Virus record (IMG/VR): IMGVR_UViG_3300032266_000589
Strand: one strand, 5' to 3'
Source of the DNA: a virus
Taxonomy: Duplodnaviria; Caudoviricetes
Length of the DNA: 64,000 nt
This document shows positions 40,894 to 63,324 of the stretch, one piece after another. The position numbers and the translations under genes were made by a program. The notes below the pieces were generated by a model, which saw only the letters and a list, made by a program, of their open reading frames with translations, searched no databases and was not told the DNA's origin. The first letter of the stretch is position 1, and each line of letters opens with the position of its first letter.

Positions 40894-40971
40894 TATCTCC
40901 TTACTGCATAAGGGTTTACGACGCGGGCGGCGGGCCACGTTTGATGTAAGTCTTTATATAGCAACACTTTA
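40894..40971. repeat. Paired-palindrome element copy 2
   Basis: TATCT-N15-GTTTA, 28-bp G-rich spacer, TAAGT-N15-CTTTA. Confidence 0.85.
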
Positions 40972-40985
40972 CGTTCACTGACTTA

Positions 40986-43627: not shown

Positions 43628-43705
43628 TAAACCCTTGTGAGATAAGGACTTACGACGCGGCGGGCGGGGAAAATTTGTCATAAGTCGTTTACTACCATAT
43701 ACTTA
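43628..43705. repeat. Paired-palindrome element copy 4
   Basis: TAAAC-N15-ACTTA, 28 bp, TAAGT-N15-ACTTA. Confidence 0.88.
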
Positions 43706-43853
43706 CGACGAGTTTTTGTCTAAAGAAAGTGCTTGACAGGTGACGATAACTATGGTACACTAGGTGTAGGAGGATAGAATATGGATGATAGAGAATATAT
43801 ACAACCTGAACAAGATACGATAGACTTTCTGGTTTACGCGGAATATATAAACT

Positions 43854-43952
43854 GGCAACTTAGGCAGATTGGGCAAGATGTGAGAAATGAGATAGATGGG
43901 ATGAGTGCGTAAGATAGGTAATCTAGGTAAGATGGGCAAGCTGGGGAAGTCT
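43854..43952 (+). repeat. Degenerate 9-bp tandem array (11 units, approximately GGYAAKMTR)
   Basis: ggcaactta ggcagattg ggcaagatg ... ggtaatcta ggtaagatg ggcaagctg. Confidence 0.7.
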
Positions 43953-44179
43953 CTGCCTATCTAAGCGGGTCATGTGTTTTTCGCCATAGTCAGCCAAAAG
44001 GAGATTTTATGAAGAATGTGCATGTTTATGATATTAAGACTGAGGATGGTCAATCGTTGATGGATTTGATTATTCCTGTGGATATTGATGCAACGTGGAT
44101 GGATGTGTTTGAGAAGGTTCAGGGAGCATATCTTGACAACGTAGACAGCTATAGCTATACTGAGGTGTAGCCAACAATC

Positions 44180-44252
44180 GGGGGTGTAACTTAGCGACTA
44201 AAGTAGCGGTCTTTTAAACCGTTTATCGTGGGTTTGAGTCCCACCGCCCCCA
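44180..44252 (+). tRNA. tRNA-Lys(TTT)
   Basis: Full cloverleaf; anticodon loop CTTTTAA; D-loop has GA and the T-loop is TTTGAGT. Confidence 0.9.
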
Positions 44253-44304
44253 TTTCGTGTATAATAGAGTAGATGATCACTAACCTTCTACTCTAGGAGT
44301 AATT

Positions 44305-44715
44305 ATGCACAGTAAGAGAAAAGGAAATATAGGCCAATTCGCGGTTGGTCTAGCTTTAACTAAACTTGGATATTCTGTATTCACTGAAGAGGGAGATATA
44401 TCTAAGATAGATATTATAGCTGAGAAGGATGGTAAACTATTAAGGTTTCAGTCTAAAGCTATAACGCCAACAGATAACAAGCTACAGCTACATTTAAAAA
44501 AGAGTGGCCCAAACTATAAATTCACTTATCAGCAAGGAGTATTTGATTACTTTGCTATATACGATTTAGAGGATGGGAATATCTATCTAGTTCCAGATTC
44601 AGTATTGTCAGAAAATAGCCATACTTTTAGTTTGAGAAAAATTCAATCAAAGAATAATCAAACGTCTGGTGTGCATATGGCATCGGACTACTTGATAGAA
44701 AAAATGCTATCTTGA
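44305..44715 (+). CDS. PD-(D/E)xK endonuclease (I-Ssp6803I-like homing endonuclease type)
   Basis: K.KG.IG...V...L...GY.VF......KIDII....G...R.QSK...Y....FDYFA.Y. Confidence 0.8.
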   Translation: MHSKRKGNIGQFAVGLALTKLGYSVFTEEGDISKIDIIAEKDGKLLRFQSKAITPTDNKLQLHLKKSGPNYKFTYQQGVFDYFAIYDLEDGNIYLVPDSVLSENSHTFSLRKIQSKNNQTSGVHMASDYLIEKMLS

Positions 44716-44784
44716 CATTCATAAGGATTGTGAGTATAATATGAGGATGAGGCGTATCCACAAATATCAACTAAGGAGTGATTT

Positions 44785-45039
44785 ATGTCATGGAGAGATG
44801 AGTTCTTCTTCTATAAGGGCTACAATTGTAGAATCGAACATGATTATGAGGAAGATAATGTTAAAGCATGGCATATTGTCGTTGATCAATCTGGTAAAGA
44901 AACTACTGCGGATATAACCCCATATGATAGTTCTCCTGAAGTGGTACGTTTGTGGATTGATGCTGGTATGCCTAAACGTATTGGTAGTGGCCCACTACGC
45001 AGAGAAGATTTGGAGAAGATGATCTATGAGCGAGCCTAA
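44785..45039 (+). CDS. Hypothetical protein
   Basis: TAAGGAG SD after a TTGACA/TATAAT promoter. Confidence 0.75.
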   Translation: MSWRDEFFFYKGYNCRIEHDYEEDNVKAWHIVVDQSGKETTADITPYDSSPEVVRLWIDAGMPKRIGSGPLRREDLEKMIYERA

Positions 45040-45181
45040 TGTCTATTATATCTATAACGAATATGTATTGGGCGACGTAGATTATTATGAGGATATCTAT
45101 GAAGAAATTATTGAGTATGATGACTCTGATGAGTGGTACAATATTGACGAAGCGGAGGCTGATGTTTGAGCGACGATGGAT

Positions 45182-45253
45182 GCCGACATAGCTCAATGGT
45201 AGAGCCACTGATTTGTAATCAGTAGGTTACAGGTTCAAGTCCTGTTGTCGGCT
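45182..45253 (+). tRNA. tRNA-Thr(TGT)
   Basis: Canonical cloverleaf, anticodon loop TTTGTAA. Confidence 0.93.
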
Positions 45254-45254
45254 C

Positions 45255-45325
45255 TCCGGGATGGTGAAACGGTATCACAAAGGATTTTGGTTCCTTTTTT
45301 CTACGTTCGAATCGTAGTCCCGGAA
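45255..45325 (+). tRNA. tRNA-Gln(TTG)
   Basis: TCCGGGA/TCCCGGA acceptor stem, anticodon loop TTTTGGT. Confidence 0.92.
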
Positions 45326-45329
45326 CTAT

Positions 45330-45401
45330 ACATAGGTAGCATAATGGTAATGCCCCAAACTGTTAATTTGTCAGATGTAGGTTCGACTCCTACCCTATGT
45401 G
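45330..45401 (+). tRNA. tRNA-Asn(GTT)
   Basis: ACATAGG/CCTATGT acceptor stem, anticodon loop CTGTTAA. Confidence 0.88.
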
Positions 45402-45405
45402 TTTT

Positions 45406-45478
45406 GGCCCTATCGTCTAGTGGACTAGGACACCACCCTTTCACGGTGGATACTGGAGTTCGAATCTCCATAGGGTCA
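45406..45478 (+). tRNA. tRNA-Glu(TTC)
   Basis: Canonical cloverleaf, anticodon loop CTTTCAC. Confidence 0.93.
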
Positions 45479-45556
45479 TAACTCTATATCTGACAAGTGT
45501 TTAGGACATGCGGGGCGGGCCGCGTTTTTCATAAGTCCTTATCTACCAACACTTTA
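45479..45556. repeat. Paired-palindrome element copy 5
   Basis: TAACT-N15-GTTTA, 28 bp, TAAGT-N15-CTTTA; abuts tRNA-Glu. Confidence 0.85.
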
Positions 45557-45571
45557 CGACAAATTTCTCTA

Positions 45572-45586
45572 GCAAATACCATGCCA
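45572..45586 (-). promoter_or_regulatory. sigma54 -24/-12 site TGGCATGGTATTTGC
   Basis: TGGCAT-N5-TTGC, 15 bp from box B. Confidence 0.65.
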
Positions 45587-45659
45587 GAGATTTTTCTAAA
45601 GATTTCTCTTGACGTTGACGATCTATATGGTATGATGAGTAGACACAAGGGAGACAATT

Positions 45660-46373
45660 ATGCAATTCAGTAAGGGTAACGAGAAGTTGGGTGACGGGTG
45701 CTTGGTTGTGAGTCGTGCTGTGGGCGATACTTGCCCATCATCGTGCGATTTCTTGGGTAACGGCTGTTATGCTGAGAACACTGAGAATATCTTTAAGAAT
45801 AGCCGAGCGGTTGGATTGCGGAATATGATTACAGAGAAGAATCTTATTCGTGCTATGATCGTGGAAGCTATTAAGAAAGAAGTTGCTATCCGTTGGCATG
45901 AACGGGGCGATTTCTTTAAGAATGGTGAACTAGACTGCGAATATGTTGACAATATCGTATGGGCTTGTGAGAGTCTATTGTCTGAGGGTAAAGAATTGCC
46001 AGAGATGTGGGTCTACTCTCATATCTATGATAGTCGTATTGTAAATCAACTTTCTAAGTATATGGTGGTATATGCTAGCGTACACAATAGCGATCATAAA
46101 GAAGCAGCAAGCAACGCCGGTTTCAAATACTTCGCATGGTGCGACACGGATAATGTCTATAGTCCAAAGAAGCCAAGAGGCAAGGCAAAAGTCGAAGCAT
46201 GGCGAAAAGCCTTGCCGAAACTAGCTATCATCGACAACGAGCGGTATATCACTTGCCCCGAGATGCGGCGTGGTCGTCAGGCTGGTGGTGTCACTTGCAC
46301 TGGCACGAAAGATAGTGTAGAATGTAATCTGTGCGTCAAGGGTTTGGCTAATGTTTTGTTTCTCAACCACTAA
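45660..46373 (+). CDS. Gp88-like (radical-SAM-like) protein
   Basis: N.KLG, TCP..C......CYA, IRWHE.GDF, CP.....C..C.LC motifs. Confidence 0.75.
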   Translation: MQFSKGNEKLGDGCLVVSRAVGDTCPSSCDFLGNGCYAENTENIFKNSRAVGLRNMITEKNLIRAMIVEAIKKEVAIRWHERGDFFKNGELDCEYVDNIVWACESLLSEGKELPEMWVYSHIYDSRIVNQLSKYMVVYASVHNSDHKEAASNAGFKYFAWCDTDNVYSPKKPRGKAKVEAWRKALPKLAIIDNERYITCPEMRRGRQAGGVTCTGTKDSVECNLCVKGLANVLFLNH

Positions 46374-46382
46374 GGATGTAAT

Positions 46383-46928
46383 ATGACGATTGTTGGAAGT
46401 TATGAAAACTCTGGAAGCCGTTCAGCTTTCTATGTTATTGATAGTAAGCGTGGATTCAAAGAGTTTGGTGATAAGAGTGAGGCTGAATATGCTCACGCTG
46501 TTCAATCTAAACTGGAAAATTGTGATATGGCCCCATATGTTATGAGTCAAGTGGGCAAGATTCGTATGAGTAATGGCAATTTGTCTGATTGGGGATATAT
46601 TACAGAGATTGCACAGATGATTGGTTGTGGTGGTAATGAGTGTAGTTGTGGCGAGTGTGATGAAGATTACTATTTCATGTATAACGATAAGATTCAAGAC
46701 TTGACAGACAATATGCTACGCATTCTTGGTGTCGAGTTTATGGATAATCATATCGGCAATGTGGGATTCATTCGTCGCAATCGTAAGAAAGTCTTAGTGT
46801 GCATTGACTTTGGCAGTGAGAGTGTGTACGATGAAGATTGTGTAGTTGACCCGCGTGATGATGAAGAATATGAGTGTAACTGCATAGTTTGTCAACAATG
46901 TCAACAACAAAGGGAATTCCATGAGTAA
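46383..46928 (+). CDS. Protein-kinase-like (APH/STK fold) protein
   Basis: G.K.F, D.H.GNVG catalytic loop, IDFG. Confidence 0.7.
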   Translation: MTIVGSYENSGSRSAFYVIDSKRGFKEFGDKSEAEYAHAVQSKLENCDMAPYVMSQVGKIRMSNGNLSDWGYITEIAQMIGCGGNECSCGECDEDYYFMYNDKIQDLTDNMLRILGVEFMDNHIGNVGFIRRNRKKVLVCIDFGSESVYDEDCVVDPRDDEEYECNCIVCQQCQQQREFHE

Positions 46929-47151
46929 GTATTATATTCAATGTGGAAGTCTACAACTTATTTTCAGCACTAGTAAATCAGAGAGTGAAGCGGCGGCACA
47001 AGTATTGTGGGAAAGTAACGAGCATGATGTATTAGATGAATATTTTTATGTAGATGAGCGTGGATATCGTGATTATACTAATGCAGATAAACACACCCAA
47101 GTTATTCCTACGGAAGTTGTAATGAAATTAGCAGATTGGGAAATAGAATGA
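46921..47151 (+). CDS. Hypothetical protein
   Basis: Coupled ORF, M.KYY.Q.G.L...V.ERG motif. Confidence 0.7.
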   Translation: MSKYYIQCGSLQLIFSTSKSESEAAAQVLWESNEHDVLDEYFYVDERGYRDYTNADKHTQVIPTEVVMKLADWEIE

Positions 47152-47153
47152 CG

Positions 47154-47231
47154 TAAACCCTTGCTACCATTAGACTTATGGCGGGCGGGGCCGGGGCGAT
47201 TTGACGTAAACCCTTATCAATTAAAGACTTA
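47154..47231. repeat. Paired-palindrome element copy 6
   Basis: TAAAC-N15-ACTTA twice; 28-bp G-rich spacer. Confidence 0.88.
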
Positions 47232-47319
47232 GAACAAATTTTGAGAAAGCCTAAAGTCCTATCCGTAGAGTGTCGATAAGTAGTGTATGGACAGGAAGTG
47301 TGTAAAAAGGAGTGGAGAG

Positions 47320-47682
47320 ATGATTCAGTGGGTTGGGATACTGATTACCATAGTGGGCTTGGCATATACGGGACTTAAAGATTACCAAAAAGGTGATATT
47401 AAATTTCCCCAAATGCCACAGAAAACGGCCTTGACAAAGGTAATTTATCCGGTACAATATTGTTTAATGGCTTACGATCCAAACGTCGATAAAGTCTTTT
47501 ACCTACATGAGAATGGAATATGGCATGACTATGCACCACAACAACGAAGATATGAGGCCACGCCGCAACGTGGTCAAGCTCAAGGTCAAGAAGCCGTGGG
47601 AAGTTCCTACGGGACACAGAGAACATCGGGATACGGTTATGGACAATCGGCCCAAGCGTCAACGAACACGCAAAGATATTGA
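47320..47682 (+). CDS. Putative membrane-anchored protein
   Basis: GGAG SD and N-terminal hydrophobic helix. Confidence 0.6.
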   Translation: MIQWVGILITIVGLAYTGLKDYQKGDIKFPQMPQKTALTKVIYPVQYCLMAYDPNVDKVFYLHENGIWHDYAPQQRRYEATPQRGQAQGQEAVGSSYGTQRTSGYGYGQSAQASTNTQRY

Positions 47683-47842
47683 AAAGGGGTGGCGAAATGA
47701 GTACAATATGTAGTGAGTGTGGCAGCAGCAACATAGGATACGATGCTTGGGTTGATAAGGATGGCAATGTAGTTGGTGGGCCATACGACAATTCCATGTG
47801 TATGGATTGTTCATCATCGAACGTAACACAGAAAGAAATATA

Positions 47843-48172
47843 ATGCCATATATTGATGAAACAAGTCGTAAGGTATTAGATGGGGCCATAGATGATCTGG
47901 CTAACATCATTACTAACTTTTCAGAATTAGATAATGAAGATGTAATGGTTGTGCTGGGTGATTTGAATTACTGTATGAGTAGATTGATTGGTCAAGTGAT
48001 GGGCAATACTTCATATGCGAAGGTTGCTATGCTCACGGGCGTACTTGAGAATGTAAAGCAAGAATTCTATCGTCGTGTGGCAGTACCTTACGAAGAAGAA
48101 AAGATTGTTCAGAACGGCGACATCAAAGAATACAAAAATCGACACTTGACAGGAAAGAATCGCACGATATAA
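47843..48172 (+). CDS. Hypothetical protein (MPYI...G.LNY...EFYRR..VPYE..K...NGD family)
   Basis: Motif common in phage ORFs. Confidence 0.8.
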   Translation: MPYIDETSRKVLDGAIDDLANIITNFSELDNEDVMVVLGDLNYCMSRLIGQVMGNTSYAKVAMLTGVLENVKQEFYRRVAVPYEEEKIVQNGDIKEYKNRHLTGKNRTI

Positions 48173-48181
48173 TAGAGAAAC

Positions 48182-48264
48182 AAGCAGATGAGGGCCGCTG
48201 GCAGAATGATATCAAAGTAGCCACGGTTAAATGGCTGTCGAGTATGGCTCAACCCTATCTGCTT
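48182..48264 (+). ncRNA. Candidate structured RNA 1
   Basis: Begins at the predicted TSS of TTGACA(48146)/TATAAT(48168); closing stem AAGCAGAT-g-AGGG/CCCT-ATCTGCTT; internal stem GTAGCCA/TGGCTGT. Confidence 0.5.
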
Positions 48265-48277
48265 TATAATACAAACT

Positions 48278-48415
48278 ACGTGGGTCCATGCCTTGGACTA
48301 GGTTGGGTAACTCATTACGATAAGCCCCGCATGTCGCGGCAGCGATGGGGCTGACAGTGCCGGTTACGCACTGGATAGTAATGCCAATCTATGGGGGATC
48401 GCGTCCTCACCACGT
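48278..48415 (+). ncRNA. Candidate tRNA-like multi-stem RNA 2
   Basis: Nested stems ACGTGG/CCACGT, GTCCA/TGGAC, TAGGTTGG/CCAATCTA, CATTAC/GTAATG, AGCCCC/GGGGCT, CAGTGC/GCACTG, TGGGG/CCTCA. Confidence 0.65.
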
Positions 48416-48597
48416 TTATAATACAAAGGAGAAGAGATGACTAAAGAAGAAGCGATGGTATTTATTCTTAGGGTTCTTAAAAACCCCATGATGGTTATGA
48501 GTCCCGATAAAACTAAAGCTATGAACCTAGCAGCAGAGCATAACATTAGTGGTATCGATCTGATTAAAGCCTACGAAAATATTGTTATGAGGATATA

Positions 48598-48867
48598 ATG
48601 CAGTGGATTAGTTTCTTTGGTCCTCGCCGCCCTATCAACGGGCAAAAGATTATATACTATGGCGAGCCTATTGGTGTGTGGCGTGGGAATTACGTTATAG
48701 ATCGTAAAGACCCACACTGTGAACATCTTATTATATGTAGTGAGGCTATGGGTGTCGTAGATCGTATGGATGCCCCGTGGTGGATGCCAGATGAGGGGCA
48801 AGAGAAACCCTCTAAGCCATCAGAAGATTATCCAAAAGATTATCCAGCCCTTGACAAACTAAACTAA
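48598..48867 (+). CDS. Hypothetical protein
   Basis: 89 aa with a GAGGA SD. Confidence 0.7.
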   Translation: MQWISFFGPRRPINGQKIIYYGEPIGVWRGNYVIDRKDPHCEHLIICSEAMGVVDRMDAPWWMPDEGQEKPSKPSEDYPKDYPALDKLN

Positions 48868-48884
48868 GCCTGTATAATAGGGAC

Positions 48885-49298
48885 ATGAAACCAAAACCAT
48901 TACATGCTGAAGTTCGATTCCATCTTGCTAGTGGTAAAAACTATATGCACTGGCAAGTCAAGGTTATGCAGGGCAGGAAAAAGGTTGATGTCTATTATTA
49001 CGATCCTGCTGACTATCAACTAGAGATGATTAACTGCAAGCTGGTTAACAAGGTAAATAAGGCTAAGAAGGTTAACAAGGCTGGTAAGAAAGATGTGGCA
49101 GGGTGGGTAAAGTGTGACGAAGTTATTCTTACCAAAGAATCTTCTGTTGACAATCTTGAGAAGTTGTATTATAATCCTATCCGTGACGTTCATTGGCGAC
49201 GAGATAGTGATGGTGGTGAGTTCGCTTGGGACGATAGTGAATACTCTACGCTAATTACCAATAACAAACAAGTTTATATCTTAGAGGAAAGAACATGA
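48885..49298 (+). CDS. Hypothetical protein
   Basis: VRFHL..G.NYM.WQVK motif; follows a promoter. Confidence 0.75.
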   Translation: MKPKPLHAEVRFHLASGKNYMHWQVKVMQGRKKVDVYYYDPADYQLEMINCKLVNKVNKAKKVNKAGKKDVAGWVKCDEVILTKESSVDNLEKLYYNPIRDVHWRRDSDGGEFAWDDSEYSTLITNNKQVYILEERT

Positions 49299-49678
49299 TT
49301 AACGTTGAAATGACAGTTCGTGAGGCTCTGAATCTGGTGTCCAACGGTGTGCATATGGACATGTACGAGCGTATCGTTCAAGCTTTGGAGGCGAAGTGTG
49401 GCGAACTCAAGGCTATTATGACCGTGCGTTACGTTCCACGCGATAGCTTCATTCCCTGTATCAAGATCATTCGTAATCATCTTGGTTGGGGTCTGAAGGA
49501 AACTAAAGACTTCCTTGATGTGGTGCGTGGTGGTTGGGATAGTTTTGAAAATGACTATGTTGATGGTAAGCCTAACTCCCTTACTAACGACAGTGATGTG
49601 ATCATCAAGATTGCGTCTGAACTTCGTTCTCAGGGGTGTACGGTGGATATCAAAGATGCTGAACGTAAACCCTTATAG
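49295..49678 (+). CDS. Ribosomal protein bL12 C-terminal-like domain protein
   Basis: IPCIKIIRNHLGWGLKETKDFLD resembles the bL12 motif I.VIK.VR..TGLGLKEAK.LV. Confidence 0.65.
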   Translation: MINVEMTVREALNLVSNGVHMDMYERIVQALEAKCGELKAIMTVRYVPRDSFIPCIKIIRNHLGWGLKETKDFLDVVRGGWDSFENDYVDGKPNSLTNDSDVIIKIASELRSQGCTVDIKDAERKPL

Positions 49679-49743
49679 GATATAGACTTACATCAAACGT
49701 GGCCGCCCCGGCTCGTCGTAAGTCCTTTGATACCAACGACTTA
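49666..49743. repeat. Paired-palindrome element copy 7 (spacer inverted)
   Basis: TAAAC-N15-ACTTA, 28 bp, TAAGT-N15-ACTTA. Confidence 0.88.
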
Positions 49744-49850
49744 TGACCAATCCAAAAAAATTTTTCAAGTTAGCTATTGACTCTGGACGATACTATGGTA
49801 GAATGATTGAAGTTACGGGATTGATAACCACTAAAGAAAAGAGGAATGAT

Positions 49851-50096
49851 ATGAATAAGTATACGTTTGTTCTGGATGTTGTGACCGATGGTTCGCTGGA
49901 TACGGATTCGATTGCCCAGACGTTGATTGCCAACGTGGAGAATGAGGGTGTGTACGCGGCTGTCAAGCCCGTCAAGGTGTCTGCTCTGAAGGAGCAGGGA
50001 TTCAAGGTGTGGCGAGCTAGGGTCGCGGGAATCACTGAGGCTTCGCTTCAGCCTGAGAAGGTGGAAGCGGAAGTCGCCGTGGCTTCGGCCTCTTGA
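49851..50096 (+). CDS. Hypothetical early protein
   Basis: GAGGA SD; GC-rich codon usage. Confidence 0.7.
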   Translation: MNKYTFVLDVVTDGSLDTDSIAQTLIANVENEGVYAAVKPVKVSALKEQGFKVWRARVAGITEASLQPEKVEAEVAVASAS

Positions 50097-50183
50097 TTTT
50101 CTAAAGAGTATCGGCTAGAATGTCGATACTAGGTGAAGCCCAAGTAACCTAGTATCGACTCTAGCAACACTAAGGAGATAACA

Positions 50184-50540
50184 ATGGGTTTGGATCAGTT
50201 CGCATACGCTGTTGATAAAGATAATAACAAGACTGAACTGGCATATTGGAGAAAGCATCCTAATCTTCAAGGCTGGATGGAAAACCTGTGGAATTCCAAG
50301 GGTTGTCCCGACGCCAACGAAAACGGTGCTGAATTCAATTGTGTGCCGGTCAAGCTAACTAAGGAAGACTTGGATAGTTTGGAGCAGGCTCTTAATTCTA
50401 ATAGCTTGCCCGCGACTGCCGGTTTCTTCTTTGGTAGTAATAGTGACGATACTTATCGGCAGCAGGACGTAGAGTTTATTGCGGTCGCCCGCAAGGCTCT
50501 TGACAGTGGACTATCTGTAGTGTATGATAGCTGGTGGTGA
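50184..50540 (+). CDS. Hypothetical protein (MGLD...YWRK.....GW...GFFFG...Y.SWW family)
   Basis: Widespread phage motif; TAAGGAG SD. Confidence 0.85.
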   Translation: MGLDQFAYAVDKDNNKTELAYWRKHPNLQGWMENLWNSKGCPDANENGAEFNCVPVKLTKEDLDSLEQALNSNSLPATAGFFFGSNSDDTYRQQDVEFIAVARKALDSGLSVVYDSWW

Positions 50541-50711
50541 TTTAACAAAGGGAGAAGACGATGACAAAGATTCTGGGTATTGGTACTGTCACGCCCAAGG
50601 GTACTGTGACGGCTATCAAGCGTGACGGTGTGGTGATTGTTGATAATGGCGCGAAGGTTGTGTTGACCTTTGCTCAAGTTGAAAAGATGATGAGTGTCTA
50701 ACTAAGGGAGA

Positions 50712-50936
50712 TTGATTATGACTATGAATGTTTTTACTAACTTTTCGCTGGCTACTGGTAAGCACCTCGTTTGCAAGTATCCCAAGCATGGCCGTCTGAA
50801 TGTGCTGAAGTTCCACAAGGGTACTGTTGAGCATCTTGGCTTTGGTCCGCACGGGCCGTATGCTAAGATTCGCAGCGAGGATAACACTATCCGTACCCTG
50901 CGATGCGACCGCATGGTTGATCCTGTCTGTTCGTGA
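50712..50936 (+). CDS. Small SH3/WYL-like protein
   Basis: GP.GPY..I......IRTLR.DRM. Confidence 0.6.
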   Translation: MIMTMNVFTNFSLATGKHLVCKYPKHGRLNVLKFHKGTVEHLGFGPHGPYAKIRSEDNTIRTLRCDRMVDPVCS

Positions 50937-50990
50937 TCTCTCCCTTGACAGGAGCGGGAACCCTATGTTACAATTGGGTTCCCGCTTCAT

Positions 50991-51066
50991 GGGGCGTAAG
51001 GTAAGCCGGTTGCATCCGACACTCTTATAAGGTGTTCATAGGTACGTTCGACTCGTACACGCCCTA
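50991..51066 (+). tRNA. tRNA-Ile(TAT)
   Basis: GGGGCGT/ACGCCCT acceptor stem, anticodon loop CTTATAA, T-arm GTACG-TTCGACT-CGTAC. Confidence 0.82.
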
Positions 51067-51537
51067 CTGTGATTTGTTGTCACTGCTAGGGAGATAAATT
51101 GATAGAACTTATGATTATGATTATTGTGTGGTCAATGCTATATCAAGATAAATAAATAGTGGATAATAACTTTCTAGTAAAGTAATCAATATCCTCTCAA
51201 TCATCAAGGGCAAACTATATGAAGATTGTAACATTAAGTGTAGAGTTGGCATTTGAGAATGTTCACGAAGGCATAGACTTCAATGATAAAGAGTCAATAG
51301 CTGAGTATTTAAATAATGCACTATATGAATCCCCAGAGTTCTTTGGTGATTTCGGGCCTGAGAATATAATAGATGTAAAGGATATAGATGATTGATCTAA
51401 CTACCAACGAAATGTGGAAGATCCTAGACGCTATAACAGCATACAAAAAAGATTATGCAGTAAGTGAGACAGTACAGAAAACTATATCTGGTATAGAGAA
51501 AAAGTTGAAAGTTGAATTGAAAAAGTAAAACTCGCCG

Positions 51538-51615
51538 TAAGTCCTTTGCCCACAAGGGTTTAGGACGAACGCGGCCCGCCCCGCGAGTCGTAAGTCCTTA
51601 CGCAGCAACCACTTA
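51538..51615. repeat. Paired-palindrome element copy 8 (spacer inverted)
   Basis: TAAGT-N15-GTTTA, 28 bp, TAAGT-N15-ACTTA. Confidence 0.88.
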
Positions 51616-51692
51616 CGTCAAAAAATTATTTCTAATGCTGACCCCTTGACATTGACGATACGTATGGTATCATTAGCGAAAAGGAGAGAACG

Positions 51693-51914
51693 ATGGTTGC
51701 GATAAATGAGGATATGGCCGATACTGTGATGGCAGCACGTTGCAAAATGTGTGCCGCCAATCATGTGATTTTCGTGAAGATGCACGATTATATCGAATGG
51801 AAGAATGGTGCGGGTTTTATTCAAGACCTTATGCCCTACCTTTCGGAAGCGGATCGTGAGCTTTTGATTAGTGGCACTTGTGGCCCATGTTTTGATTCAA
51901 TGTTTCCCTCTTGA
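51693..51914 (+). CDS. Small Zn-finger protein
   Basis: CxxC...IQD..P.LS...RE.LISG.CxxC. Confidence 0.8.
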   Translation: MVAINEDMADTVMAARCKMCAANHVIFVKMHDYIEWKNGAGFIQDLMPYLSEADRELLISGTCGPCFDSMFPS

Positions 51915-51971
51915 CAAGCCGATAACGTATAGTATACTGTTGACACGTAGTTTGATTTCCCACTAGGAGTT

Positions 51972-53177
51972 TTGAAGATGAGCGATTATAACAAGTTGAC
52001 GATTGATTCCAATGCTTCCGCCGGTTCGTTCGTGCGTACCCTGCAAGGCAACACCGGTACGGGTTTCGCGGAAGGCACCCATGTCCACAAAGATTGGTGG
52101 GCGAAGACCAAGACCTTTGAACAGGTCAAGCAGGACACGCAGACTGCTATTGATAACCGTGAGGATGTTCTCACTGAAATCAAGAACATTTTCTGCACCA
52201 ATGAAGGTGACGATTTTTACTTCAAGCTGGCAGACGGTCGCAAGTTTCGCCCGACTGACCATGCTCTTGAGCAGTTCAGCACCCGCGTAGGCGTTACGTC
52301 CTCGTCGTTCCTGCGTGAGATGCGTAATATCGAAGGGTTCGATGGTAACGATAGCAACACGATGGCTATCGTTGGCAACAATGCCATGCGTCGAATCGAT
52401 CCCGATAAGAAGTTTCGTCTGCGTACCTATACGGATGGAACGTGTCGTGCGTTCGTGACTGAGCAGTATGCTCCGGTCGATAACCGCTGGTATCTTGATG
52501 TGCTTGGCGAGTTCATTCCCGGTGGACGGTTCAGCCACTGGCGTGGAGATGAGGATACCATCTATGGTAACGTTCTCATCCCCGATACCATCATGGACTA
52601 CGGTTCAGACGATAGTGACTACGGTGGCATGATCAGCGTGGGTAACTGTGAGATCGGCACTCGCCGCATTACGCAAACGCCCAGCCTGTTTCGTGCCATC
52701 TGCATGAATGGCTGCATCTGGGGTCAGACTTCCGGTGAGAAGATTCGTCGCGTTCATCGTGGCAATATCGACCTCGCCGCTCTGAAACTGGAAATTGCCA
52801 AGAATATTCAGGATCAGATTCCGCTCCTCGCTCCGGGTATCAAGAAGTTCTTGGCAACCCGTAGTATGGAAATCGGTAAGGCTTCTGCCAAAGGTATCAT
52901 CGCCAGCGTTTCGTCAGATTACAAACTGTCAAAGCGTGAGGCTACTGAGTTCCTTGAGCAGTATGTCACGATGGAAGCACAGAATAGTAGCCTGTTTGGT
53001 ATCATCAACGGTCTGACCCGTGCTGGTCAGAAGTTTGATAATAAGACATGGGTGAAGTTCGATGAGGTTGCTGGTAATCTGCTGGACATTTCAGCGGATC
53101 GCTGGAACACCATCCTGCGTCGTGCGGATACGTTCAACGATAAGGATTACGAAAAGGTTTTCGCCCTTACGGCTTGA
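51972..53177 (+). CDS. DUF932/DUF945-like protein
   Basis: T.HA..Q....G, RA..T..Y...DN, G...GN.E.G, P.LFR..C.NG.I, H.G, S.FG..NG.TR..Q. Confidence 0.8.
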   Translation: MKMSDYNKLTIDSNASAGSFVRTLQGNTGTGFAEGTHVHKDWWAKTKTFEQVKQDTQTAIDNREDVLTEIKNIFCTNEGDDFYFKLADGRKFRPTDHALEQFSTRVGVTSSSFLREMRNIEGFDGNDSNTMAIVGNNAMRRIDPDKKFRLRTYTDGTCRAFVTEQYAPVDNRWYLDVLGEFIPGGRFSHWRGDEDTIYGNVLIPDTIMDYGSDDSDYGGMISVGNCEIGTRRITQTPSLFRAICMNGCIWGQTSGEKIRRVHRGNIDLAALKLEIAKNIQDQIPLLAPGIKKFLATRSMEIGKASAKGIIASVSSDYKLSKREATEFLEQYVTMEAQNSSLFGIINGLTRAGQKFDNKTWVKFDEVAGNLLDISADRWNTILRRADTFNDKDYEKVFALTA

Positions 53178-53275
53178 TTCTAGTGGGAGGGGAAAGGGGC
53201 TGGCGGGCCATTATCAATAAATTATCCTGCCAGTTCCCTACCCTTCCAACAAACTTGGGAAGCTGAGACTCGCCA

Positions 53276-53403
53276 TAAGTCCGTTGCCCATAAGGGTTTA
53301 CGGCGGGCGGGGGCGGCGAAATTTGATATAAATACTTATCCCATAAGGGTTTACATCAAGTCTAATAGCAAGTGAACGTAAGTCGTTTGTTCTCAAGTAC
53401 TTG
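53276..53403. repeat. Paired-palindrome element copy 9 plus a third box
   Basis: Boxes 53276-53300 and 53329-53353 are 28 bp apart; an extra box lies at 53379-53403. Confidence 0.85.
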
Positions 53404-53453
53404 CGTCAAGAGTGTCGATATGGTATGATGGAGAGTGGAATGATTGGAATGTG

Positions 53454-53551
53454 GGTAATATAGATAACACAGGTAATCTAGGCTACATGTTAAAATAGGT
53501 AGTCTGGGTAATCTGGGATGTCTAGGTAAGCTAGGCAAGTGGGGTTGTCTC
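53454..53551 (+). repeat. Degenerate 9-bp tandem array (about 11 units)
   Basis: ggtaatata gataacaca ggtaatcta ... ggtagtctg ggtaatctg ggatgtcta ggtaagcta ggcaagtgg. Confidence 0.7.
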
Positions 53552-53618
53552 TCCCAAAATAAAAGGGTCAACATATTGCAATACAGTCAGCGAAAATAAT
53601 CATAAAGGAGAAAATAGA

Positions 53619-53912
53619 ATGGCAAAAATTCATGGACATCAAATGAAAGAAACTAAAGAGAATATTCGTACAGATGATATATGTGATATGCTGTTTCAAC
53701 AAATAGATAAGCCCTCTAACTATAAGATGTGTCGAGCCTTTAACGTATACGACAACAAGTATCGAATTAATGTATATACTCACGAAGTAGTCAACGACAT
53801 TGAAAGTCAACGCATTAGCCAATCTTATTTTGCCAAATTGGCAGGCGACGGTACATCATTAGAAATTCTTCTAAAGCCCGCTCCCGTTGATCCTAAAAAG
53901 AAGAAGAAGTGA
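53619..53912 (+). CDS. Hypothetical protein
   Basis: AAGGAG SD; NV.DN.YRINVY...I..S.F motif. Confidence 0.8.
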   Translation: MAKIHGHQMKETKENIRTDDICDMLFQQIDKPSNYKMCRAFNVYDNKYRINVYTHEVVNDIESQRISQSYFAKLAGDGTSLEILLKPAPVDPKKKKK

Positions 53913-54086
53913 GGCTTGTCTTATCTAATATAACAAGATTGTTTCCATGTTGGTAGTCAGCGAGATATAGCCCTTGACACAGTGGCAATACTGTGATAGA
54001 CTAGGGTACGTACTTCCCAAAATAACAAGATCTGGCCTGTGCTGGTAGTCAGCGACATTTCCTTTTTACATATAGGATACATATAA

Positions 54087-54515
54087 ATGAAATTGAAGCG
54101 TGGACAAAAGCTTTGTAAGAACTGTAATAATATCAATGGCGCACGGGCGCATACATGTAAGCATTGTAATAGTGAGTTTGTGTCTGCATCTATAACTAAG
54201 AAGAATAAGTTTAAAACCAAGCGCCCCAAGAAATATGAAGAGATTGATTGGAAAGATCTATCGACCGGGGATACTATTAAAGTTATAGGACGGTCTGGTA
54301 ATTACTATGTTAATAGCATGGGCGAACGTATGTATATGAGTGATGCTGGAATATATACAGTACGTAGTAAAGATACTAATGGACTGATAGTTTATAGTTC
54401 AGACGGCGGTTACGGGTATATCTATATGGGACCAGAAATTCAATCTGATCTCATGGATAATATGTATCGTAGCCCACATAAGATCGTAAAGGTCAATTTA
54501 CCTGTTCGAACATGA
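54087..54515 (+). CDS. Zn-ribbon protein
   Basis: G.K.CxxC...NG.R...CxxC N-terminus. Confidence 0.8.
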   Translation: MKLKRGQKLCKNCNNINGARAHTCKHCNSEFVSASITKKNKFKTKRPKKYEEIDWKDLSTGDTIKVIGRSGNYYVNSMGERMYMSDAGIYTVRSKDTNGLIVYSSDGGYGYIYMGPEIQSDLMDNMYRSPHKIVKVNLPVRT

Positions 54516-54565
54516 TACTATAAATAAGGCCATTTTGGGCTGATTATCAAGGAATATGACCACTA

Positions 54566-54880
54566 TTGTGTGATATTTCAATGAAATCGCCCCTTTTTAT
54601 AAGGGAGTATACTATGCTATCTAAACGTGAGTTCTTCCTATACATGTCTACAGTATATGAGGAAGACTTCAAAGAAGAAGACTCATATAAGGTATTCAAA
54701 CAAATCGTTAAAATGACTGATCAAGACCAGTTATTAGAAATGAAGGAAATAACCATGTTTACCAAAAGACAAAAGGTAGCATATAGAAACGCCCTTGCTG
54801 CTAATGGTAAGGAACTGACGCCTAGACAACTAGATCAATACATAAGCATGATAGAGCTAGCTCTTGAACAAAGACATTAA
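54566..54880 (+). CDS. Hypothetical protein (likely start ATG 54614)
   Basis: GGAG SD before MLSKREF. Confidence 0.65.
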   Translation: MCDISMKSPLFIREYTMLSKREFFLYMSTVYEEDFKEEDSYKVFKQIVKMTDQDQLLEMKEITMFTKRQKVAYRNALAANGKELTPRQLDQYISMIELALEQRH

Positions 54881-54909
54881 TCTACCATACATATACTATA
54901 TACAGAACG

Positions 54910-54942
54910 GCCCCGTGGTTCCTATGGACTATGGGGCTTTTC
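54910..54942 (+). terminator. Putative intrinsic terminator
   Basis: GCCCC..TCC-TAT-GGA..GGGGC followed by TTTT. Confidence 0.55.
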
Positions 54943-55180
54943 TATTTACCTACTCTACACTCATCCCTAGTACCCATACACTCTATGAAATACGGGAATA
55001 TCGAAATATTTATTGTATTGTGAAATATCCACATTAAAAGTCACATATATGCCCCCAACCAATTTAGTCATCGATGTATTTATGTATGGTAGTATAGTTA
55101 GTATATGTATATGTGTTATTATAGGTCTTTCATGCATATTCAATGACAATGTATAACTATCTATTTAGCATCCTTATTGG

Positions 55181-55861
55181 GTGTATTTATATGTAGTATA
55201 TGGGTTTATAGCCCACAGAAAAGGAGTGAAGGGAGGAATAATGGGAAGAAAATCCACAAATAAAAAAGAAAAGAGAGAAAAAATGACAAAGCTCATTAGA
55301 CGTATATACGCCTATGTTGTATTGGCATTAATATGTGTTGGATCAATATTCGCCGTTAAGAATACAATTAAGAAATTAAATACAGATATATCATCACTAC
55401 CAAATGGCAGCTATCAACACATTAGACATGAATTAAATATACCACAAAACAAAAGACTCAAATTCCCACTACTCACAAGAATTAGCGATATAGACAAAGA
55501 AGATGTTGGATGTGGGGTTAAATTAGATTACTGGAATATCCATAACTATCTATGCGAAATCAAGTTTACAGATGTTTGTACTGAAACAATTATCCCACTA
55601 GGAACAAAAATAGTATTCAACGGGCAGTGTGATATTGTAGAGGGGGAAAGTGGGCTTAAGACATATAGGGTGTATGTAAGTGAGCCATCTTATATAGAGT
55701 ATATAGAGTGCAGTAGCTATATAGATCATTATATAGGAATATTGGGAGATATTTGCCATGTAACTGAGCAAGTATTTACTGGAATGTCAATCCAAGAATT
55801 TAATAGGGTCATGATAGTAGCAAGTAAACTTCAAGTAGCCAAAAACGGAGAAACACCATGA
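55181..55861 (+). CDS. Membrane-anchored hypothetical protein (start 55241 or 55283)
   Basis: GGAGG SD, N-terminal TM helix, late-type motif upstream. Confidence 0.6.
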   Translation: MYLYVVYGFIAHRKGVKGGIMGRKSTNKKEKREKMTKLIRRIYAYVVLALICVGSIFAVKNTIKKLNTDISSLPNGSYQHIRHELNIPQNKRLKFPLLTRISDIDKEDVGCGVKLDYWNIHNYLCEIKFTDVCTETIIPLGTKIVFNGQCDIVEGESGLKTYRVYVSEPSYIEYIECSSYIDHYIGILGDICHVTEQVFTGMSIQEFNRVMIVASKLQVAKNGETP

Positions 55862-56094
55862 GTGATATTAAACAAGAAATCAACGAAGCAATCGAAAAAT
55901 TAGAATCTCAGGGGATTACCAAAAATGCCCATTTAGGTGACACTGTGGGCCTTGGAGACAAAGTAGAAGAAGTTTTAACAAGCATGGGAATAACACAGGA
56001 AAGATTTAAAGAGTGGTTTAATTTGAAAGAGTGTGGATGCTCCAAGAGAAAAGCGTGGCTAAATAGCCTATTTTCTTGGAAGAAAAACTCTTAG
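55858..56094 (+). CDS. Small CxC protein
   Basis: GLGD.VE......GI.......CGC.KRK.WLN. Confidence 0.75.
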   Translation: MSDIKQEINEAIEKLESQGITKNAHLGDTVGLGDKVEEVLTSMGITQERFKEWFNLKECGCSKRKAWLNSLFSWKKNS

Positions 56095-56125
56095 TCGGTA
56101 GACAGACAAAAATTCAAGTTGACAG

Positions 56126-57106
56126 GTGCCTTTACCGATGTATAATAGGGTAGAGGCACCTATTCTTTTTACGGTATTGCATAACATGAAATATGGTCTT
56201 TGTTGTATTAGTCTAAATTTGCAAGACGGCGATAATCCCGCCAAGTTTCAAACCATGACCTATAAACGCTTCTCTGGCCTTCCTAGGGGCGAAGCGTTGT
56301 CTATACTAGGTGATCGTATTCTCAACAATATGGTCGTTACAGATCAAATAATCCAATATTGTGCTGATAACAATATGGTTTATCGTATTAGCAGCGATCT
56401 ATTCCCCCTTATTACTTATGATGAAGCTAACATTGAACTAGAGGATTTGCCAAATTATGATGATATTCAGGACTCTTTTGATACTCTTGCACAGACTATT
56501 GCCACTAATGATGTTCGCATTTCTTGTCATCCTAGTGAATTTAATGTACTGGCGTCCCTTAATACAAAAGCCGTTGACAAAACCATTACAGAGCTTAACT
56601 TCTATTCTTCATTCATGGACAGAATAGGTTGTCCAGCTAATTACGAATCGCCCATGAATATCCATATACACAACAAGCATGGGTCTAACAAAGAAATAGT
56701 ACAGCGATTTATTACCAATTTCAATAGACTTGATTGTAACTGTCAGTCTAGACTAGTTATAGAAAATGACGATAAACTCAACTGTTGGAGTGTTCGCCAA
56801 CTATTGACAGACTTCTACCCAGCCACTAAAATACCATTGACGTTTGATTATCTGCATCATGCTTGCCATTCAGATGGCATGACAGAGCAAACAGCTTTGG
56901 AAGAATGTTATATGACTTGGGGCAATTATAAGCCCTTATTTCATTACAGTGAAAGTCGCCCCGGTAATAATCCAAGGGCGCACGCGGATTATGCTAATAA
57001 CACATTCAATACGTATGGTTTAGACTTTGATTTAGACTTTGAGCTAAAAATGAAAGACAAAGCCATATTGAATTTTTCACAACAGGAGTTCGCACATGCA
57101 AGATAA
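56126..57106 (+). CDS. uvsE: UV DNA damage endonuclease (likely start ATG 56186)
   Basis: YRISSDLFP, RISCHP..FNVL.S, NIH, RL.IENDD, P.TFD..HH, P.FHYSE, RAHAD, E.K.KD.A. Confidence 0.92.
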   Translation: MPLPMYNRVEAPILFTVLHNMKYGLCCISLNLQDGDNPAKFQTMTYKRFSGLPRGEALSILGDRILNNMVVTDQIIQYCADNNMVYRISSDLFPLITYDEANIELEDLPNYDDIQDSFDTLAQTIATNDVRISCHPSEFNVLASLNTKAVDKTITELNFYSSFMDRIGCPANYESPMNIHIHNKHGSNKEIVQRFITNFNRLDCNCQSRLVIENDDKLNCWSVRQLLTDFYPATKIPLTFDYLHHACHSDGMTEQTALEECYMTWGNYKPLFHYSESRPGNNPRAHADYANNTFNTYGLDFDLDFELKMKDKAILNFSQQEFAHAR

Positions 57107-57443
57107 ACTAGTCAAGGTTAAAGATATAAAAGGAATGGCTAGACATATCAGAAGAGATATAGCTAAACAGCAGGGAATTCCAATTAAAGAGCTTAAAGAT
57201 TTCATTACTCAAGATGAGATGACATCGCTTATTAGACAATATTCTCAACAAGACGAAACTGGAAATTTGTTGGTGAACTGTCAGATACTTGACAAAATCT
57301 TCAAGGAAGCGTACAATTGGATAGTTGGTATAGAAATTAGCAGACTAGCTGCTTCTGGCACATTCGATGTATATTGGAGTGATGATAAGAATAGTATGGT
57401 TTTTGCAGCAATTACAGAAAAGGAAAAGGATATCAATGGCTAA
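57096..57443 (+). CDS. Hypothetical protein
   Basis: Coupled 115-aa ORF. Confidence 0.7.
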   Translation: MQDKLVKVKDIKGMARHIRRDIAKQQGIPIKELKDFITQDEMTSLIRQYSQQDETGNLLVNCQILDKIFKEAYNWIVGIEISRLAASGTFDVYWSDDKNSMVFAAITEKEKDING

Positions 57444-57726
57444 AAATTATTATAAGGCACCAAAGCATTCTACTGGACACGTAGTAACAACTAAAACACA
57501 TTTTGGCTCAACAGCAGATATGGTGGTTGACCATTCTATTTTGCAGCTTGATGGAAAACCTATTCAGCTATCAGAAACCAGTGTTCTTTGTAAAGATGAT
57601 TTGGGTTATTATATTACCAGCAAGACCATGATTAATAGTGGGCTTGCCGATCCAAATCGCTATGCTAACACTAATAGTAGGGTTGCTGCGTCAGAACTAC
57701 AGAAAGAAGAAAGCTCAAGCTCTTGA
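57367..57726 (+). CDS. Hypothetical protein (likely start ATG 57436)
   Basis: AAGGA SD before MAKNYY. Confidence 0.65.
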   Translation: MYIGVMIRIVWFLQQLQKRKRISMAKNYYKAPKHSTGHVVTTKTHFGSTADMVVDHSILQLDGKPIQLSETSVLCKDDLGYYITSKTMINSGLADPNRYANTNSRVAASELQKEESSSS

Positions 57727-57770
57727 CTAACTGTTGTCGATAGAGTACAATAGCACTAAAGGAGAAAAAT

Positions 57771-57986
57771 ATGTCACTTACGTGGGGCGATCTTAAGAAT
57801 TATATTGAAAACCAAGACGAAGACTTTCTGGACAACGAAGTTCGTATTTATGATTTTACAGATGGTGAAGAATACGACGCAGGCGTAACAGAGCTTTTGT
57901 TTGGAGAGGATGAGCAGGGAGAAGGCTGGGTTCCATATCTAACAATAAATGAAGGAGATTCAGATGAATCTGATGAACAGGTTTGA
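57771..57986 (+). CDS. Small acidic protein
   Basis: AAGGAG SD after a promoter; TW..L...I motif. Confidence 0.75.
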   Translation: MSLTWGDLKNYIENQDEDFLDNEVRIYDFTDGEEYDAGVTELLFGEDEQGEGWVPYLTINEGDSDESDEQV

Positions 57987-58245
57987 TCTTGAAGCAAAGT
58001 TAATGCAAAATCATAACATCGTAGATGATTTAAAAACTCTTGCGTGGTATATTATTGAAAATCAAGACGAAGCCAACGCAGACTTTTTTACTAATGCTTT
58101 AAATGGTTTGGCATGTCTACAAGAAGCACGAAACGCAGAAACGTGGGATATGTTTATTAAAACTTTTGAGCTTGACGAATATAACAATAACAATGAGGAT
58201 TATAACGATGAAGAAAAACATGAAGATCGTACTTCGACCAAGTAA
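57949..58245 (+). CDS. Hypothetical protein
   Basis: RFDLE..LM......DDL motif. Confidence 0.7.
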   Translation: MKEIQMNLMNRFDLEAKLMQNHNIVDDLKTLAWYIIENQDEANADFFTNALNGLACLQEARNAETWDMFIKTFELDEYNNNNEDYNDEEKHEDRTSTK

Positions 58246-58385
58246 TAGCCATTTGGGTGAAGCTTATCAAGTAAAAAAGATTGTAAACAGTTTAGAGTTC
58301 GTTGTTGGTGAACTTATAGATACTGAATACGTATCTGATCTTGTTGCTAGTAAAAATTGGACGGTAGAAATAGTGAGTAAGTAAC

Positions 58386-58796
58386 ATGAATGCAGACCTT
58401 CAAGATAAGCTAATTGAAAAATATCCAGAACAGTTTAAAAATCTGAAATGGATAGAGATTGATGATGGATGGTTTAATATTCTATCAAAACTATGCTATA
58501 TTGTAGATAATCGTCTTCATTATAAGCAAAAGATTAATGAGCCTCTGGAATTTTTCTATTGGAGCCAGATTAAAGAAAAGTTTGGTGGACTAAGAGCATA
58601 TGCTTATGGTGCTGATGACTTTATTAGAGGAGCAATAGAGATGGCAGAGAGCATAAGCTATATGACTTGTGAGCATACTGGACAAAGAGGTAAACCAAGA
58701 AAACAAAAGATAGATGAGGCAACTGGACAGATTATTCCAGCTTGGATTAAAACTCTTAGCGACGATGAGGCAAAAAGGCAAGGATATATACTATGA
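58386..58796 (+). CDS. Hypothetical protein (GW...QIKEKFGGLR.Y...CE..G family)
   Basis: Widespread phage motif. Confidence 0.8.
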   Translation: MNADLQDKLIEKYPEQFKNLKWIEIDDGWFNILSKLCYIVDNRLHYKQKINEPLEFFYWSQIKEKFGGLRAYAYGADDFIRGAIEMAESISYMTCEHTGQRGKPRKQKIDEATGQIIPAWIKTLSDDEAKRQGYIL

Positions 58797-59029
58797 CCAA
58801 GCCAGAAAGTTATTGGAATCATAGAGTTATGAGGACTAAACATGTTGATAATTATATGACGTATGGAATTCATGAAGTGTATTATCGTGGAGATAAAGTT
58901 ATTAGCTGGACAGATACGCCCGTTGAGATAGCGGAAGAATCTTTGAAAGACCTCAAAGTAACATTGAAGAATATGCTGGAGGTTTGTAAGCTTCCAGTAC
59001 TTGATTCTATAACCGGAGAAGAAACATGA
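58793..59029 (+). CDS. Hypothetical protein (WNHRV...IHEVYY family)
   Basis: Coupled ORF with a recognisable motif. Confidence 0.8.
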   Translation: MTKPESYWNHRVMRTKHVDNYMTYGIHEVYYRGDKVISWTDTPVEIAEESLKDLKVTLKNMLEVCKLPVLDSITGEET

Positions 59030-59244
59030 AAGCCACATTGACATTTACCTTGCCAGAAGAACAATTAGAGTTTGACACTGCTATTCAAGCTGGTGCAGCT
59101 AAAAGTATGCTATGGGACTTCTCCCAGCAACTGCGTTCATGGAGAAAACATCACAATGATTTTACGGATGCCAATGACGCACTAGATAAAATTAGGGAAG
59201 AATTTTATAGGCTCATTAATGAGCATAATGTAAATATAGACTAA
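59026..59244 (+). CDS. Hypothetical protein (MKA.L.F.LPEE family)
   Basis: Coupled ORF. Confidence 0.8.
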   Translation: MKATLTFTLPEEQLEFDTAIQAGAAKSMLWDFSQQLRSWRKHHNDFTDANDALDKIREEFYRLINEHNVNID

Positions 59245-59301
59245 TACAGTGTATTAATATGTGGGTGTTTTCTTTGGCCTTTTATTTATTCGGGGGCTAA
59301 A

Positions 59302-59559
59302 ATGAAAGTAATTTACAGAATCTTACGTGGTATAGTTGGTGCCTGTTTATTAGCTTGGATCAGCGTCTCAATAATAGAAACTGAGCTATTAATACTCACA
59401 AATAGTTCATATACTAAATACATGGCTCACGATCTATTTTATGGATATTTAAGCGTAAAAACATTCTACGAAAACATTGTCTATATTGCTATATTTAACT
59501 TCATCATTGGATTCATAATAGGATTCATATGGAAACCTCAAGATATTCACCATGAATGA
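59302..59559 (+). CDS. Small membrane protein (2 TM)
   Basis: Two hydrophobic segments. Confidence 0.6.
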   Translation: MKVIYRILRGIVGACLLAWISVSIIETELLILTNSSYTKYMAHDLFYGYLSVKTFYENIVYIAIFNFIIGFIIGFIWKPQDIHHE

Positions 59560-60235: not shown

Positions 60236-60409
60236 AAGTTTAAAAGAAGATCGCGGTAATCTTGCAGTAAATATAATGTTGGGTATTTTTTACAGTTGGC
60301 TTATATTACTTCCTCTTGGGATATGGAAAATAATTGATTTGCTGCTCTACATTTTCTAAAGAAAAGTCTTGACACTTGACGATTGATAGAGTATGATTGA
60401 GATGTAAGC

Positions 60410-60482
60410 GGGAGTGTAGTCCAAAGGCAGAGACAGTGGACTTAAAATCCATCCAGTGTGAGTTCGATTCTCACCACTCCTA
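60410..60482 (+). tRNA. tRNA-Leu(TAA) with short variable region
   Basis: GGGAGTG/CACTCCT acceptor stem, anticodon loop CTTAAAA, 5-nt variable region. Confidence 0.85.
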
Positions 60483-61519: not shown

Positions 61520-61531
61520 GGTTTATTATGC

Positions 61532-63171: not shown

Positions 63172-63189
63172 TAAACAATAGCAAACTAT

Positions 63190-63263: not shown

Positions 63264-63324
63264 CTTTTTATTATTTTGTGTATATATGGATAGATAACTA
63301 TTCTCTATCCATAAGGAATAAGCA

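Follow-up and report, generated by a model that had tools for sequence, protein, structure and literature searches.

The DNA analysed here (the window, 64,000 nucleotides in full) comes from an uncultured tailed phage of lake water, whose terminase and tail-repeat genes are carried on the minus strand, with small genes and tRNA genes on the plus strand. Eight tRNA genes, Ile(UAU) among them, are scattered over positions 44180-63264. Within this tRNA region of the phage lies the subject of the present study, a 138-base RNA at 48278-48415 of the plus strand (hereafter the junction RNA), which stands out as an island of high G+C content (57% vs 38.6% for the whole window). Its parts and immediate surroundings are listed in Table 1.

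The genes around the junction RNA encode small proteins that differ between relatives, and searches of these genes against Pfam and PHROG gave only domains of unknown function. One upstream gene (47798-48172, plus strand) encodes a 124-aa protein of the DUF6899 group, which has 54 relatives in IMG/VR and weak matches in the Ralstonia jumbo phage RsoM2USA; its stop codon sits within the -10 box of the promoter of the RNA. From the position of this promoter we infer a transcription start near 48180, and sequence conservation among relatives starts a few bases downstream of the promoter. The first module of the transcript, which precedes the junction RNA, folds into a closing stem with two hairpins (z -1.5 and -2.3 in two members). 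One of its hairpins varies between relatives by block substitution. The module is missing in one relative (L066), and there the junction RNA has its own promoter. The 53-aa ORF that follows the junction RNA matched neither a Pfam nor a PHROG family.

Several other features of the region may be recorded here. Two more sigma-70 promoters matching the consensus at 12/12 positions are found less than 1 kb downstream (48851-48878 and 49147-49175, plus strand), so that almost every small gene cassette in this part of the genome has its own promoter. Between gene cassettes there is a family of ~70-nt repeats (40908-40978, 43642-43712, 45493-45563, 49680-49750, 51552-51622 and 53290-53360) with a G+C-rich centre, TAAGTC-like arms and, often, a TTGACA/TATAAT promoter after them; these look like terminator-plus-promoter boundary cassettes. 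Runs of a 9-bp periodic repeat (TAGGTAATC-like) occur at 43888-43954 and 53443-53544, i.e. ~9.5 kb apart.

Table 1 Features of the junction RNA and of its transcription unit (coordinates of the window)
Feature	Coordinates	Strand	Remarks
Sigma-70 promoter, TTGACA-16 nt-TATAAT	48146-48173	+	12/12 consensus match; conserved in relatives
Upstream RNA module (5' domain)	48182-48264	+	~83 nt; near-invariant in 11/12 relatives
Linker motif, AUAAUACAA type	48265-48274	+	exact repeat of 48417-48426; precedes the junction RNA
P1 5' strand, acceptor-like closing stem	48278-48283	+	pairs with 48410-48415; 100% of cells paired
P2, D-like short hairpin	48284-48298	+	98.7% paired; two-sided changes at one pair (7 sequences)
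P3, long arm	48299-48391	+	
P3 proximal 5' strand	48299-48306	+	pairs with 48384-48391; 99.8% paired
Pseudoknot 5' strand, bulge (6-7 nt in the family)	48307-48312	+	paired in 100% of cells (alignment A6), 99% (alignment A7)
P3 middle 5' strand	48313-48318	+	pairs with 48378-48383; 100% paired; two-sided changes at 5/6 pairs
P3a, variable distal hairpin, GGCA loop	48323-48352	+	heavy covariation
P3b hairpin	48355-48373	+	loop 48362-48367 is the pseudoknot 3' strand; two-sided changes at 5/5 stem pairs
P3 middle and proximal 3' strands	48378-48391	+	partners of the P3 5' strands
P4, T-like hairpin (second short hairpin)	48394-48408	+	stem 98.4% paired; one pair changed on both sides
P1 3' strand	48410-48415	+	pairs with 48278-48283
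Second linker copy	48417-48426	+	leads directly into the Shine-Dalgarno sequence of the ORF that follows
53-aa ORF, outside the RNA, same transcription unit	48437-48598	+	starts 21 nt 3' of the junction RNA

The MFE fold of the junction RNA is a four-way junction (-58.4 kcal/mol, z -2.94), and equally good folds were obtained for only 1 of 200 shuffles of the plus strand; the minus strand of the same interval folds no better than its shuffles (z -0.81). The closing stem P1 is followed by the short hairpin P2, the long arm P3 and the second short hairpin P4, and in the modelled arrangement P1 can stack on P4, with P2 beside P3. The long arm terminates in a three-way junction, one hairpin of which folds back, its loop pairing with a bulge lower in the arm. 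All helices listed in a sequence-only reading of this DNA were recovered, and the MFE fold and the covariation described below reproduce the four-way junction drawn there. Two of its details need correction: the distal loop taken for a GNRA loop is GGCA (48338-48341) and hence GNNA, and the T-like hairpin has an ambiguous register, as the consensus fold prefers 48394-48399/48403-48408 with a 3-nt loop. A coding reading of the short ORFs that overlap the junction RNA was also considered and was rejected: these ORFs are not conserved, since indels of a single base distinguish the hairpins of the relatives.

Relatives were collected from IMG/VR contigs by means of short conserved words from the RNA, and a covariance model was built from 17 loci. 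The word search gave dozens of loci in phage contigs, many of them of 200-240 kb, and the model found 39 copies in viral contigs and at least 85 in metagenome contigs (the words matched at least 120 metagenome contigs). Viral and metagenome contigs combined hold at least 107 distinct sequences of the main type. Two loci sharing a 17-mer with the RNA (L059 and L074) were discarded as chance matches. Five complete genomes (200-244 kb, with terminal repeats) carry one copy each, and some phages carry two, in tandem or nearby. In a blastn search (distant mode) with the window region and two relatives, none of the 50,697 GenBank phage records gave a match. Within the species genome set, the RNA was found on two MAG contigs only, one in a Candidatus Planktophila bin and the other in an alphaproteobacterial bin from Lake Lanier; since these contigs may be mis-binned phage DNA, no host was assigned from them.

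Base pairing is strongly conserved among the relatives. In the metagenome alignment, which comprises 79 distinct homologues and was controlled with 500 shuffles and with slid alignments, 97.9% of cells were paired and 31 pairs showed changes on both sides; none of the 500 shuffles matched the observed covariation, and the slid controls reached 34-41% paired. The viral-contig alignment gave the same picture. Altogether, the set of homologues, over 100 different sequences from uncultured phages of fresh water, maintains the helices through compensatory changes, P3a being optional. Only the plus strand fits these data, because G-U pairs, which on the minus strand would turn into C-A mismatches, are frequent. 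Four of the five core pairs of P1 show two-sided changes, and its outermost (sixth) pair is Watson-Crick in 60/100 members, G occurring on the 3' side only with C on the 5' side. In the proximal helix of P3, one pair is changed on both sides in 27 sequences. The hairpin P3a is missing from minimal members of the family (e.g. L108, L110, L112, L165 and L188) and is therefore an accessory, dispensable part. The sequence AUGC is conserved in and adjoining the loop of P2, and the loop of P4 carries the complementary GCRU; pairing between the two loops is compatible with 99.3% of cells and can only be proposed, since the changes are one-sided, with none on both sides.

The 6-bp pseudoknot, formed by the bulge 48307-48312 and the P3b loop 48362-48367, had been overlooked in the sequence-only reading. 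The pseudoknot helix was not included in the model used for alignment; two or three of its pairs are changed on both sides, with A-U/G-C exchanges in 7-8 sequences and C-G/G-C exchanges in 5-26 sequences. No member lacks the P3b hairpin or the complementarity of its loop, and this holds for the minimal ones as well. By this comparison, nothing in the long arm is more constant than the pseudoknot, which occupies the place of an anticodon stem-loop. The fold and the covariation establish that the interval 48278-48415 encodes a genuine structured RNA on the plus strand, which is widespread and combines a four-way junction with a pseudoknot inside its long arm.

The RNA also turned up among the contigs of lake metatranscriptomes (four runs, four studies), in which DNA carry-over is possible. 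One of these contigs spans an upstream module, the junction RNA, a linker and a second copy. In one run (X1), short contigs reach sequencing adapters at 48292 and 48296 and at 48410 and 48416, with the same adapter orientation in all three, which would fit a plus-strand RNA with its 3' end near P1; these adapter junctions were not counted as evidence, because contigs cannot establish ends or strand.

The junction RNA is not an isolated element. Linkers of the AAUACAA type border nearly every module in the relatives, and they always join the modules, the order and number of which vary between phages. In the array of one complete genome (G002), the linker motif occurs three times on one strand, against 0.08 occurrences expected. 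In this genome, the ORF that follows the junction RNA in the window is preceded by ~370 nt more of RNA modules, including a decayed tRNA and a third copy of the linker. The string in the window is therefore a shortened one, and recombination between linker copies was probably responsible. From this arrangement, the junction RNA is seen as one bead in a string of RNA modules driven by the consensus sigma-70 promoter.

Such an arrangement might also be expected of a miniature mobile element acting at the DNA level, in which the ends of the interval would be short terminal inverted repeats, the linkers a duplicated target, and the RNA without function. The exact 10-bp direct repeat on both flanks, the shuffling of modules between phages and the apparent loss of ~370 nt between two linker copies would agree with this. 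However, the helices covary through G-U pairs, the pseudoknot covaries as well, the minus strand lacks a fold better than that of shuffles, and the RNA is present in RNA libraries; we regard this explanation as scarcely credible. Linker-mediated recombination may well shuffle the modules, and selection at the level of RNA still stands.

The invariant junction core with its pseudoknot, the conserved linkers immediately 5' and 3' of it and the tandem copies in some phages could alternatively suggest a self-cleaving ribozyme, which would cut the string at the linkers and free each module or its neighbour. This is very unlikely, as no Rfam ribozyme family matched at E<=10 and most genomes have a single copy, and as the linker is found between modules of very dissimilar folds as well, which would call for a cutter common to all of them. 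Control of the downstream 53-aa ORF by a cis-acting leader, i.e. a riboswitch or attenuator, is a highly improbable reading. The RNA in the window does end just 5' of a Shine-Dalgarno sequence, with no terminator between them, but in relatives it precedes other modules, a second copy or different genes, and neither an expression platform nor a conserved downstream gene was found.

As the RNA had been described as tRNA-shaped, its likeness to tRNA was examined. None of the tRNAs called by ARAGORN in the window falls within 48278-48415, the intron mode gave no call on the junction RNA, and only at an 80% threshold was a partial call obtained, which does not span P1. The Rfam tRNA model (RF00005) did not match the junction RNA either (E<=10). 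Inspection of sequence and fold revealed no T-loop consensus, D-loop GG, junction spacer nucleotides, anticodon loop or CCA in the window copy. The absence of an anticodon loop, already remarked on in the sequence-only reading, is borne out by the structure: the long arm ends in the three-way junction, and the sole loop of 7-8 nt (48361-48367) is used by the pseudoknot. The stack of acceptor-like and T-like helices measures 5-6 bp plus 4-6 bp in this copy.

A closer resemblance to tRNA was found in a sister subtype of ~20 members (L146:524-627, L161:3052-3190, L126, L143 and L238-L256), which has the same long arm and pseudoknot and stands beside the main type in the same arrays. In this subtype, P4 is replaced by a T-arm-like hairpin with a covarying 6-bp stem and an invariant 7-nt loop whose positions 1, 3 and 5 are U, C and A. 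The 6-bp closing stem, which begins with G directly after a U (U-1/G+1), and the 6-bp T-stem add up to a 12-bp stack, and the tail reads U-C(C/U)-A, with CUA instead of CCA in about half of the members. The closing stem carries G1-C72, C2-G71 and G3-C70 and is followed by U73, a set that matches the glycine identity elements. In the main type, ACCA or GCCA stands directly 3' of P1 in 48/107 distinct relatives (among the matches listed), so that the statement that CCA is lacking holds for the window copy and not for many of its relatives. An encoded 3' CCA was found in 0/379 tRNA genes called in the same loci of this phage group, and the N-CCA after P1 is therefore not just the local style of tRNA genes; as neither subtype keeps CCA strictly, the tail may nevertheless be a mere linker variant.

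True tRNAs that have decayed and bear inserts around the anticodon occur in the same RNA strings. Two of them, L146:403-500 (plus strand) and L081:1181-1253 (minus strand), scored 30-35 bits with the Rfam tRNA model, and in the arrays of relatives such decayed tRNAs were the only Rfam matches; in its intron mode ARAGORN called the former as tRNA-Gly(UCC), with 27 nt inserted at the anticodon region. Together, the sister subtype, the N-CCA and the decayed tRNAs are sequence features that support tRNA ancestry or mimicry. The description of the RNA as tRNA-shaped thus holds for its shape, by way of the sister subtype and the decayed tRNAs, while the window copy fails every formal tRNA detector.

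Comparison with tRNA (RF00005) itself leads to a similarly mixed picture. Both are four-helix junctions with a closing stem able to stack on a hairpin and a stack of ~11-12 bp, and the N-CCA of many relatives as well as the T-loop-like loop and U-1/G+1 of the sister subtype match tRNA. On the other hand, tRNA has spacers at positions 8, 9 and 26, of which the junction RNA has none, and its acceptor stem comprises 7 bp as compared with 5-6 bp in the closing stem.

The nearest described analogues are rnaC (species 1, 139 nt) and rnaD (species 2, 119 nt) of phage T4, which resemble the junction RNA in kind and are not its homologues. They too are stable small RNAs without a decoding role, come close to it in length, and are transcribed together with other RNAs from a position among the tRNA genes of the phage. 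The ends of rnaC have tRNA-like features, and rnaC also carries a canonical T-arm that is absent from the RNA in the window. Unlike the junction RNA, the T4 RNAs have neither AAUACAA linkers nor a bulge-loop pseudoknot. Homology was rejected after a search of T4 positions 68000-76000 with the family model, filters off, in which the best hit had 8 bits and lay on the wrong strand. To our knowledge, tRNA look-alikes of the rnaC/rnaD type have been without an assigned function for about fifty years.

Other small RNAs offered less. YrlA contains a tRNA-like domain and does not decode, and RNAs of the YrlA type are sometimes borne by phages; YrlA has a long Ro-binding helix, in contrast to the short closing stem of the junction RNA. 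The earlier suggestion of a Y-RNA-like scaffold fails, because no YrlA or Y RNA match was found in Rfam (E<=10) and no Ro60/TROVE gene in the five complete carrier genomes, control genomes having given matches in the same search. ToxI-like type III toxin-antitoxin arrays consist of identical ~36-nt units in tandem, with the gene for an endoribonuclease toxin downstream of them. An array of this type was rejected here, the modules being of different folds and 80-170 nt long, with downstream ORFs that match no family. A tmRNA was likewise dismissed, as ARAGORN, which also searches for tmRNA, gave none in the window.

The possibility that the RNA belongs to a known Rfam family with another fold had been raised with the original description; Rfam 15 gave no match at the gathering score in the window and none at E<=10 within 48100-48600, with riboswitches, ribozymes, GOLLD and ROOL included. 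A literature search found no description of this RNA family. The same source collection, IMG/VR, has been mined for structured RNAs, yielding a catalogue of ~8,500 unnamed candidates with lengths of up to 151 nt, many of which are said to look tRNA-like (PMC10690425). The main text of that article names and describes no such family, and the catalogue (published in 2023) may contain the junction-RNA motif among its unnamed candidates (PMC10690425). As compared with the tRNA-like small RNAs of phages, the pseudoknotted arm and the linker-punctuated arrays are new features.

It has to be considered whether the resemblance to tRNA arose by chance, the RNA being a protein-binding or sponge RNA whose invariant core docks a target of host takeover or a phage protein unrelated to tRNA. 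The core (P1, the P2 loop, proximal P3 and P4) is indeed kept at the level of sequence and not of pairing alone, while the distal hairpins drift; the sigma-70 promoter is of an early type, and the tRNA detectors were all negative on the junction RNA. Against this stands the sister subtype, in which P4 is exchanged for a T-arm-like hairpin with a tRNA-like stack length and tail, an exchange for which it is difficult to account unless a tRNA-type reader is involved. Furthermore, no conserved neighbouring protein gene was found in the relatives. We consider this explanation unlikely.

Our best guess, which we put forward tentatively and with slightly less than even confidence, is that the junction RNA is a processed, non-decoding mimic of tRNA that engages a tRNA-binding factor, the string being cut at its linkers. 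The modules would be cut apart at or near the AU-rich linkers, which resemble RNase E sites, and RNase P may be the enzyme that trims the RNA on the 5' side of P1. Once released, the RNA would serve as decoy, sponge or scaffold: the acceptor/T-like stack and the elbow would occupy a factor of the host or the phage that ordinarily deals with tRNA, and the knotted arm would keep the RNA out of decoding. On the modelled fold, the RNA might be a decoy for factors binding on the acceptor/T side; the anticodon-nuclease decoy proposed in the sequence-only reading is unlikely, because nothing like an anticodon loop is present. In a more far-reaching version, the RNAs would be mimics matured by the host (by RNase P, with a CCA end and perhaps charging), in which the pseudoknot replaces the anticodon arm and which divert a tRNA-dependent host process early in infection, for example a defence enzyme acting on tRNA acceptor ends. 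On the sequence features described above, we hold this version to be unlikely.

Strings of RNA modules punctuated by linkers are an undescribed organisation of phage non-coding RNA genes. The family presented here is a better handle on phage tRNA look-alikes than rnaC and rnaD of T4: with more than 100 members, rich covariation, a tertiary pseudoknot, two subtypes that differ in the T-arm and strong early promoters, clean structure-function experiments are possible. It is carried by abundant lake phages, and it could reveal a host tRNA-handling factor that is targeted by phages.
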